Positions 16,198 through 16,486 are shown, counted from the stretch's first letter. The stretch: 17,293 bases of DNA from a virus (UHGV-1701501); one strand, 5' to 3'. Made by a program: numbers and translations. Notes: a model not told the origin generated them from the sequence alone.

Positions 16198-16267
16198 AGC
16201 CTCCTCCCGGGTCCAGAACGCACTCAGCCGGGTATGGTTCAGCCCATTTTTCCCGGCGTCTCATGCC

Positions 16268-16395
16268 GCAAATGTTAACTGCTGCCTGGTTAACATTTGC
16301 TGAAAAAGCCAGTTAACATTTTTTTCGCACAACAAACTGAATAATAAAGATAAAAACCGAAAAAATGCCCGGGCAGCCAGTTAACATGTTAACTG
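16268..16395. repeat. Cluster of GTTAACAT-containing direct and inverted repeats (candidate terminase small-subunit binding sites, cosB-like)
   Basis: GCAAATGTTAAC (16268..16279) and its inverse GTTAACATTTGC (16289..16300), CCAGTTAACATT (16310..16321), and CCAGTTAACATGTTAACTG (16377..16395, itself palindromic); AT-rich; lies between the HNH and small-terminase genes. Confidence 0.4.
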
Positions 16396-16423
16396 CCCTG
16401 AAACGGGAATTTTTTCTCTGCGT

Positions 16424-16483
16424 GAGAGGGGGGGCGGTGTCCGGAGCGATCGTTTTTCACGCCGGATGATACCCCCCCCGCTC
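16424..16483. promoter_or_regulatory. Candidate cos cleavage region (cosN-like): G7/C8 inverted repeat
   Basis: GAGAGGGGGGGCGG (16424..16437) and ACCCCCCCCGCTC (16471..16483) form an imperfect inverted repeat with GGGCGG-type content; located between the HNH endonuclease and the repeat cluster. Confidence 0.3.
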
Positions 16484-16486
16484 GGG

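Follow-up and report, generated by a model that had tools for sequence, protein, structure and literature searches.

Between an HNH endonuclease gene and a gene for a small terminase (TerS), the viral sequence UHGV-1701501 carries 289 nucleotides of intergenic DNA, and the question that this locus raises is whether the packaged genome is cut there and, if so, which parts of the interval are read by the packaging proteins. The window, meaning the whole stretch of DNA that was analyzed, is 17,293 nucleotides long. The genes flanking the interval are all on its minus strand, in the order HNH, the gap, TerS and the large terminase (TerL). A preliminary description had proposed for this place a cohesive-end (cos) region with small terminase binding sites and a nicking site. 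Our analysis indicates that 16198-16486 is the cos of an HK97-type packaging module belonging to a lambdoid (Stx-phage-type) E. coli prophage and that it includes a TerS-recognition array, a reading to which we give a probability of roughly 0.8. The location of the cos within the interval is close to certain, on the strength of ends mapped in a close relative and of homology.

The most direct evidence comes from the induced Stx1 phage Lys8385Vzw, which PhageTerm assigned to the cos type with 3' cohesive ends CGCCCCCCCT (Zhang et al., 2021, PMC7946995). Base 1 of its record (MT225100.1) corresponds to position 16426 of the window, with 98.8% identity from 16426 to 16100 (327 nt), and the record ends in ...GGACACCGCCCCCCCT, the terminal 10-mer being the one found at 16427-16436. 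Since the record starts at 16426 and ends with this 10-mer, the G7 run of the interval falls inside the overhang. On the gene-sense strand the nick is predicted to separate 16427 from 16426, and on the plus strand 16436 from 16437; the left end of the virion DNA is the TerS-proximal one. The phage has the same 10-nt end and the same HNH and terminase genes as the window, and differs in a G-run one base shorter. The publication gives the 10-mer and the packaging class only, without the G-run, the block from +1 to +30 or the GTTAACAT array described below. With the cohesive end already published for a near-identical phage, we rate this feature as an ordinary cos site that is already known.

For three phages with related TerL (HK97, phiE125 and Bcep176) the record has cos at both ends, which allows the same cut to be located by alignment. 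HK97 has 10-nt 3' overhangs (PMC9410871, PMC11331095); its record ends ...G10-ATCAAATCTTCAAAACCTTTGCCCCAAATGAC-CGCCGCCAAA and starts GTTTGAATTT... For phiE125 and phi644-2, ten-base 3' extensions 5'-CGCCCGCTTC-3' have been described (PMC2920897), and the phiE125 record closes with these ten bases, ahead of which come GGGAC and, 32 nt upstream, a G-run. In Bcep176 an identical 10 nt, CGCACGTTCC, stands at both ends of the record, a terminal redundancy known from the record alone; our literature search turned up no description of a Bcep176 cos. The gene-sense sequence of the window is G8-N35(..GGACAC)-CGCCCCCCCT-CTCACGCAGAGAAAAAATTCCCGTTTCAGG and aligns without gaps to ..TAGAC-CGCACGTTCC-CTCACGCGCAGAAAATTTTCCCTTTTCAGG of Bcep176. 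From this alignment a cohesive end was predicted at 16427-16436, which the published result for Lys8385Vzw then matched exactly. The comparison with HK97-like cos sites that the preliminary description had suggested came out in its favor; in the alignment the cut falls exactly where HK97, phiE125 and Bcep176 have their 10-nt ends. The window is in this way assigned, by proxy through Lys8385Vzw and the three aligned phages, defined virion ends that lie between HNH and TerS and have a 10-nt 3' overhang.

Headful (pac) packaging, with the interval as a mere untranslated leader, would be suggested by the family of the TerS, Terminase_2, the best-studied members of which (SPP1 and SF6) are pac phages. 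However, the near-identical Lys8385Vzw was typed as cos with 3' ends by PhageTerm (PMC7946995), the TerL falls into one cluster with those of the cos phages HK97 and phiE125 and has an HNH gene adjacent, and the core aligns with three phages having defined 10-nt ends. We give this explanation practically no weight.

The HNH-cos-TerS-TerL order of HK97-like phages, as originally described, is present. TerL is homologous to HK97 gp2 (BLASTP E = 6e-12 over 490 aa) and to phiE125 gp2 (E = 7e-23), and an HNH homolog was found on the same strand at most 900 nt upstream in 63 of the 64 loci whose TerS is of the helix-turn-helix (HTH) type. Genes for an HK97-type portal (PF04860), for a protease (PF04586) fused to the capsid protein (PF05065) and for the tail are read from the same strand. 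As an HK97-like module the locus thus stands with regard to TerL, to the position of HNH and to portal, protease and capsid, but not to TerS, which shows no similarity to HK97 gp1 (E = 1.1) and is not of the gp1 type. The N-terminus of this protein is instead a Terminase_2 HTH domain (PF03592, residues 2-57, E = 1.4e-8, 35.9 bits for a cut-off of 26.1), with weak matches to the DNA-binding domain of SF6 TerS (4zc3 and 2cmp) and without any other Pfam match. HK97 resembles the window in gene order from HNH through TerS, TerL, portal and protease to capsid, in its 10-nt 3' overhangs and homologous TerL, in a G-run about 32 nt upstream, in the sequence GAC/CGC.. at the cut (marked here and below by a slash) and in an A/T-tract after it. 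It differs in its unrelated TerS (gp1, which lacks an HTH and binds +15 to +29 through its channel), in having no GTTAAC array and only 49 nt from the cut to the TerS start, and in its HNH protein, to which that of the window is barely similar (gp74, a marginal E = 0.17). The HK97 HNH protein stimulates cos cleavage, a role that the HNH protein of the window would probably share.

We gathered the loci that encode relatives of this TerS (39 genomic and 160 viral-contig) and derived core statistics by aligning, without gaps, 71 distinct cos cores of Enterobacterales and Burkholderiales origin. The layout common to HK97, phiE125 and Bcep176 is a G-run, about 34 nt, the dinucleotide AC, the 10-nt end and a conserved block. 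A G-run of 4-9 nt is present in every one of the 71 cores, and in 67 the distance from its end to the 10-nt end is 33-36 nt; at the equivalent place HK97 carries G10 and phiE125 GGGGAGGGGGG. The G-run may be a termination-side (cosQ-like) or a nuclease-positioning element. The bases preceding the cut (..GAC/ in HK97, ..GGGAC/ in phiE125, ..TAGAC/ in Bcep176) are nearly invariant at positions -1 (C, 2.0 bits) and -2 (A, 1.7 bits). The overhang starts with C at 1.8 bits and falls to 0.2-1.2 bits in its interior, with a mean of 0.91 bits as against 1.34 bits per column in the +1 to +30 block, the consensus of which is C[TG]CACGC.CAGAAAAwwTYCCC. This block is common to loci of either TerS N-terminal type (see below). 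Because both the block and the G-run arm are shared in this way, we read them as probable targets of conserved components, that is, TerL, HNH or the C-terminal part of TerS. The block is probably recognised by a conserved part of the terminase, and the nearest precedent is the HK97 TerS site at +15 to +29, which includes an A-tract of its own (PMC11331095).

At shorter distances the variable parts of the core become apparent. Among 50 close relatives the G-run is 6-11 nt long, which fits the earlier remark that such homopolymeric runs are prone to slippage as far as this run is concerned. Four overhang alleles were found in the same relatives, CGCGCCCCCT (28), CGCCCCCCGT (15), the minority allele of the window CGCCCCCCCT (5) and CGCGCCCCGT (2), so that prophages residing in the same cell may have non-identical sticky ends. 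The nick contexts /CTCAC and /GTGTC have no two-fold symmetry. In HK97, TerL and the HNH protein have been suggested to cut one strand each (PMC11331095), and the asymmetric contexts of the window would be compatible with such a division of labor.

Two observations were made in the vicinity of the G-run. Just upstream of it HK97 (L005, about 900-980) and many relatives (L013, L018, L020, L025, L033, L100, L109 and others) have two to four AT-rich repeats like ATGATATCAATTATCATTTGCA, which may be a further packaging or termination signal. They are missing from the window because the HNH stop codon (16487-16489) is only 7 nt from the C8/G8 run. In the PPompW prophages (L134, LC567822.1, 813-2271) the IS110-family element ISEc20 adjoins the G-run of cos (..acGGGGG/atcatccggcg.., where the slash is the junction) and a G7 run is found at its far end. 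The HNH and lysis genes that normally lie between Q/tRNAs and cos are missing there, leaving that copy of cos without an HNH partner.

The G7 run (16428-16434) and the C8 run (16472-16479, plus strand) had been described as an inverted repeat on the HNH side with GGGGGGGCGG content and as the possible nicking site. Both runs, their position and the GGGGGGGCGG content are as claimed. The proposal on nicking survives for the G7 run, which the ends of Lys8385Vzw place within the cohesive end; the C8 run is the conserved upstream G-run, 35 nt away, and the inverted repeat is not conserved among relatives, in which the G-run alone is kept. G7 runs in the window are not rarer than expected by chance. 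Extrusion of the repeat as a hairpin or cruciform recognised by a nuclease could be imagined from its 11-nt arms, which are 91% complementary, and from a predicted single-stranded DNA fold that pairs G7 with C8. Yet this fold is no more stable than those of shuffled sequences (z = -1.36; 19 of 200 fold equally well), the commonest overhang of the close relatives, CGCGCCCCCT, interrupts the G7 run, and the overhangs of Burkholderiales relatives, HK97 and phiE125 (CGCACGTTCC, CGCCGCCAAA and CGCCCGCTTC) cannot pair with a G-run that is nevertheless kept. With a hairpin that is neither significant nor conserved, we rejected the inverted repeat as a structural signal and regard its extrusion as very improbable.

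The second part of the interval is a cluster of GTTAACAT sites. This word occurs five times in the window, always within 16272-16393, for an expectation of 0.28, and none of 200 shuffles reached five. On the plus strand the sites are at 16289, 16312 and 16380 and on the minus strand at 16272-16279 and 16386-16393. At least four sites in both orientations had been reported; the orientations stand and the count is corrected to five. The palindromic arrangement was likewise borne out, in the form of a perfect 18-bp palindrome CAGTTAACATGTTAACTG and of an inverted pair GCAAATGTTAAC-N9-GTTAACATTTGC. The AT-richness attributed to the entire interval (GC 0.51, window 0.57) applies to 16268-16395 alone, where GC is 0.33-0.38. 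The spacer between the palindrome and the remaining sites holds one weak terminator-like hairpin and might possess an intrinsic bend.

The small terminases of the Terminase_2 (SPP1/SF6) family bind repeated boxes at packaging sites, and for this reason we read the cluster at 16268-16395 as a cosB-like array for the HTH domains of TerS. That the GTTAACAT sites are binding sites of this protein seems to us reasonably probable from the comparison of sequences. Across 41 distinct close relatives, variation was seen in 0 of the 38 motif columns and in 54 of the 165 other columns of 16198-16400 (Fisher p = 1.8e-6), and GTTAACATGTTAAC was invariant in the 50 close relatives. Each of the five sites persists in L096, a relative with a TerS identity of only 67% and a heavily altered adjacent leader; this leader (16198-16267) is the most variable intergenic segment among relatives.

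The intergenic region of most relatives is short, and its one inverted repeat is found about 35-45 nt past the cut, over the TerS start codon. It reads GT[AT]AAC-ATG-TTAAC in Enterobacterales and TGTTAAT-GGCT-TTAACA in Burkholderiales. The ATG within the palindrome of the window aligns with the TerS start codon of this short form (Salmonella phage FSL SP-016 and 60 other loci); the window has lost the ribosome-binding site that would precede this ATG, and its actual TerS start is 190 nt further on. TTAAC is found at the TerS start in 16 of 18 Burkholderiales loci, in two reading frames (MALT.. and MAFNS..), while TTA makes up 2.6% of the Leu codons in the rest of these GC-rich TerS genes, and every lineage with repeats upstream of the gene has the Leu codon relaxed to CTG or CTA. 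Judging from these codons, TTAAC is kept at the DNA level and not at the protein level. Parallel extended designs exist in Giesbergeria (L031), Comamonas (L037) and Paraburkholderia (L033) prophages, where the core is followed by a palindrome ATGTTAAAGCTTTAACAT, about 75 nt of spacer, two or three direct copies of ATGTTAAAG (with an 11-nt period in L037) and the TerS start.

The same comparison raises the alternative that the GTTAACAT copies have no function and are what remains of earlier TerS start regions, duplicated or recombined, after the addition of about 190 bp. Besides the alignment of the palindrome ATG with the short-type start codon, one of the sites taken together with its flank (site b, AAATGTTAACTGGCTTTTTCAGC, 16306-16324) resembles the Burkholderia-type TerS start TTTGTTAATGGCTTTAACAGC (L008/L009, Bcep176), and the true TerS start GTGCTGACA is similar to ATGTTAACA. 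The likeness of site b suggests that TerS-start regions were duplicated or recombined to give the array, an origin compatible with a present function. Relics should decay, however, and here 38 motif columns are invariant next to neighboring columns of which 33% vary; the sites persist in the relative with 67% TerS identity and a heavily altered leader, and independent lineages own analogous arrays. We consider the array improbable as a mere remnant.

The nature of the repeated word changes with the N-terminal domain of TerS. Each of the 64 HTH-type loci carries GTTAA or TTAAC in the stretch from the core to the TerS start. The count is 0 of 18 where TerS is of the MPRGGxRPGAGR type, a protein that shares the C-terminal part and has the HTH N-domain replaced. 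These MPRGG-type loci retain the cos core and carry AATCAAA/GAATTC-type repeats in the same place, a word present in 0 of the 64 HTH-type loci. The sister group with this TerS consists of L040, L041, L043, L135-L142, L150, L155, L174 and L195; in one of them, L142, the layout is extended, the spacer measuring about 110 nt and GAAATCAAAG being present three times.

This switch bears on a further explanation, in which the cos site is real but the array is bound by a host nucleoid protein or by a phage regulator controlling expression of the terminase operon. The short-type GTTAA inverted repeat, over the TerS start codon and beside the ribosome-binding site, does occupy an operator-like position, and the TerS site of HK97, which is experimentally defined, is nearer to the cut, at +15 to +29. 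A promoter and terminator scan gave one plus strand promoter-like match over the repeats, covering two GTTAACAT sites, and one weak hairpin, neither of them clearly above the shuffle background; the match is also on the wrong strand relative to the genes. A motif that changes with the TerS N-domain (64/64 versus 0/18) would be unexpected for a host factor, a separate phage regulator would need constant co-inheritance with TerS, and no other candidate DNA-binding gene is conserved beside the array. Moreover, the late operon of lambdoid phages is transcribed from a Q-dependent promoter and is read through from it. Binding by such a regulator is, in our opinion, unlikely, although less so than the relic explanation, and we retain TerS as the protein that would bind the array.

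A wider proposition is that cos is modular throughout this clade, with a universal nick core (G-run, AC/N10/CNCACGC and A-tract) and a swappable cosB module. We hold the chances of this to be about even. Recognition of the core would fall to TerL/HNH or to the conserved C-terminal part of TerS, whereas GTTAA would pair with the HTH type and AATCAAA/GAATTC with the MPRGG type. The ancestral short form would be a TerS operator over the TerS start codon, allowing autoregulation, and several lineages, the E. coli Stx-type included, would have expanded independently to lambda-cosB-like arrays, freeing the start codon. No account of the G-run, of the +1 to +30 block, of the GTTAACAT array or of a repeat word that follows the TerS N-domain was found in the literature consulted, and searches on the 10-mers and on GTTAACAT with terminase gave nothing relevant beyond PMC7946995. 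The modular picture is a modest, testable addition and no surprise for the field.

Several points weigh against the reading of the interval as a cos with a TerS-recognition array. The termini were mapped in a close relative, and the prophage of the window may be defective. The IHF consensus WATCAANNNNTTR has no match within one mismatch in 16198-16486, and the analogy with lambda cosB is therefore incomplete in the spacer. The distances between GTTAAC centers (8, 15, 23 and 68 bp) follow no clean helical phasing. The loci compared are phylogenetically related, so that 64/64 and 0/18 overstate the number of independent events, and the second motif (AATCAAA-like) was defined after inspection of the data. 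TerS is put forward as the most economical candidate for the protein that would bind GTTAACAT. Finally, the TerS of HK97 has its site at +15 to +29 and not further downstream, and as that protein is unrelated to the TerS of the window, the analogy is indirect for either module.

The closest parallels to the short form are Burkholderia phages. In phiE125, phi1026b, phi644-2 and Bcep176 the 10-base 3' extensions are at the aligned position, together with the G-run and a AAAGTCTGG arm, and Bcep176 has in addition a homologous TerS (36-39% identity), the +1 to +30 block and, where TerS starts, the inverted repeat GTTAAT..TTAAC. They differ from the window in the TerS start, which is about 45 nt from the cut, in a single inverted repeat instead of five sites and in their overhangs. 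In lambda, cosB consists of the sites R3-I1-R2-R1, with gpNu1 bound at the R sites and an IHF site between them, and the cohesive ends are 12-nt 5' overhangs. The window is similar in having short repeats in both orientations between the nick and the TerS gene and an AT-rich, possibly bent segment among them, over a span of about 230 bp (190 bp in lambda). Lambda differs in its 5' overhangs, its lack of an HNH gene, its TerS family (gpNu1, compared with PF03592 and 10-nt 3' ends here) and its IHF site. The pac of SPP1 has repeated boxes near or over the 5' end of the TerS gene that are bound by G1P. SPP1 and SF6 share with the window this placement of the boxes, the Pfam family of TerS and the kind of N-terminal HTH, but they package by headful and have boxes on both sides of the cut, whereas the window has cos ends and repeats on one side only.

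Put together, these features suggest how the site might work. The terminase would cut concatemeric DNA at 16427/16426 and 16436/16437 and generate the 10-nt 3' ends CGCCCCCCCT; the adjacent HNH nuclease would probably assist, possibly by nicking one strand. Packaging would run from the CTCACGC... end toward TerS, TerL and the head genes. A first module, the cos core, would be independent of TerS type and comprise the G-run about 35 nt upstream, AC, the fast-evolving overhang and the +1 to +30 block with its A-tract. A second, the TerS-specific cosB-like array, would follow downstream with the palindrome, the 58-bp AT-rich spacer and three more sites, and the N-terminal HTH domains of oligomeric TerS would most likely bind these five GTTAACAT sites. 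In the lineage of the window about 190 bp would have been added and the TerS start codon shifted downstream.

Table 1. Features of the packaging locus, in window coordinates.
Feature	Position	Strand	Details
HNH endonuclease gene	16487-16852	-	121 aa; Pfam PF01844, E = 3.9e-8; phrog_589 HNH
Intergenic region	16198-16486	genes on -	289 bp between HNH and TerS
Conserved G-run	16472-16479	-	G8 gene-sense, C8 on + strand; 35 nt upstream of the cohesive end
Right-end arm	16437-16471	-	from G-run to nick; ends ..GGACAC
10-nt 3' cohesive end	16427-16436	-	CGCCCCCCCT gene-sense, AGGGGGGGCG on + strand; contains the G7 run
Left-end block, +1 to +30	16397-16426	-	CTCACGCAGAGAAAAAATTCCCGTTTCAGG; includes the A-tract
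Perfect 18-bp palindrome CAGTTAACATGTTAACTG	16378-16395		two overlapping GTTAACAT sites
AT-rich spacer, 58 bp	16320-16377		GC 0.36; T/A-tracts 8-12 nt apart
Single GTTAACAT site	16312-16319	+	part of the three-site group 16268-16319
Inverted pair GCAAATGTTAAC-N9-GTTAACATTTGC	16268-16300		two GTTAACAT sites
Variable leader	16198-16267	-	TerS ribosome-binding site GGGAGGAGG at 16200-16208, before GTG 16197
Small terminase gene (TerS)	15634-16197	-	187 aa; Pfam PF03592 (Terminase_2), phrog_641; GTG start
Large terminase gene (TerL)	13976-15637	-	553 aa; Pfam PF03354 and PF20441; HK97/phiE125 type

The packaging module of which this cos is a part is that of long-tailed Stx1 and Stx2c phages and of some that carry Stx2a. 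Across the interval, 92 phage records are 95-98% identical to the window; they come from long-tailed phages with Stx1a, Stx2c and, in some cases, Stx2a, among them BP-4795, 2851, 1717 and YYZ-2008. The interval was found in 1244 of 5426 complete E. coli genomes, at 2947 places and up to seven times per genome, with no RefSeq feature under it. The exact cut, the core and the probable array allow prophage genomes to be oriented and annotated correctly, and help to predict which co-resident or defective prophages, satellites and plasmids one terminase could package. The segment 16268-16479 is also a compact target for the study of how an HTH-type TerS, an HK97-type TerL and an HNH protein cooperate. 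If the modular reading is true, the array would set packaging specificity among the co-resident prophages of E. coli.

Some minor observations concern the reading frames and signals around the site. In MT225100.1 (L132) TerS is annotated at 185-793, equivalent to window 16242 to 15634, with a CTG start 45 nt upstream of GTG 16197; we rejected this start in view of the ribosome-binding site GGGAGGAGG and of the N-termini of homologs, which favor GTG. An open reading frame of 23 codons from the ATG of the palindrome has no ribosome-binding site and was not accepted as a gene. An Rfam scan of 15900-17293 returned a single match at chance level (E = 0.9) and no known RNA. On the plus strand, a divergent open reading frame of 86 aa (16834-17094, phrog_949, function unknown) overlaps the 5' end of HNH by 19 nt and is kept in BP-4795 as ORF52. 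Further along the minus strand, at 11975-13912, the prohead serine protease (PF04586) and the HK97-type major capsid protein (PF05065) form one open reading frame of 645 aa, a protease-capsid fusion of the kind reported for Gifsy-2-like heads.

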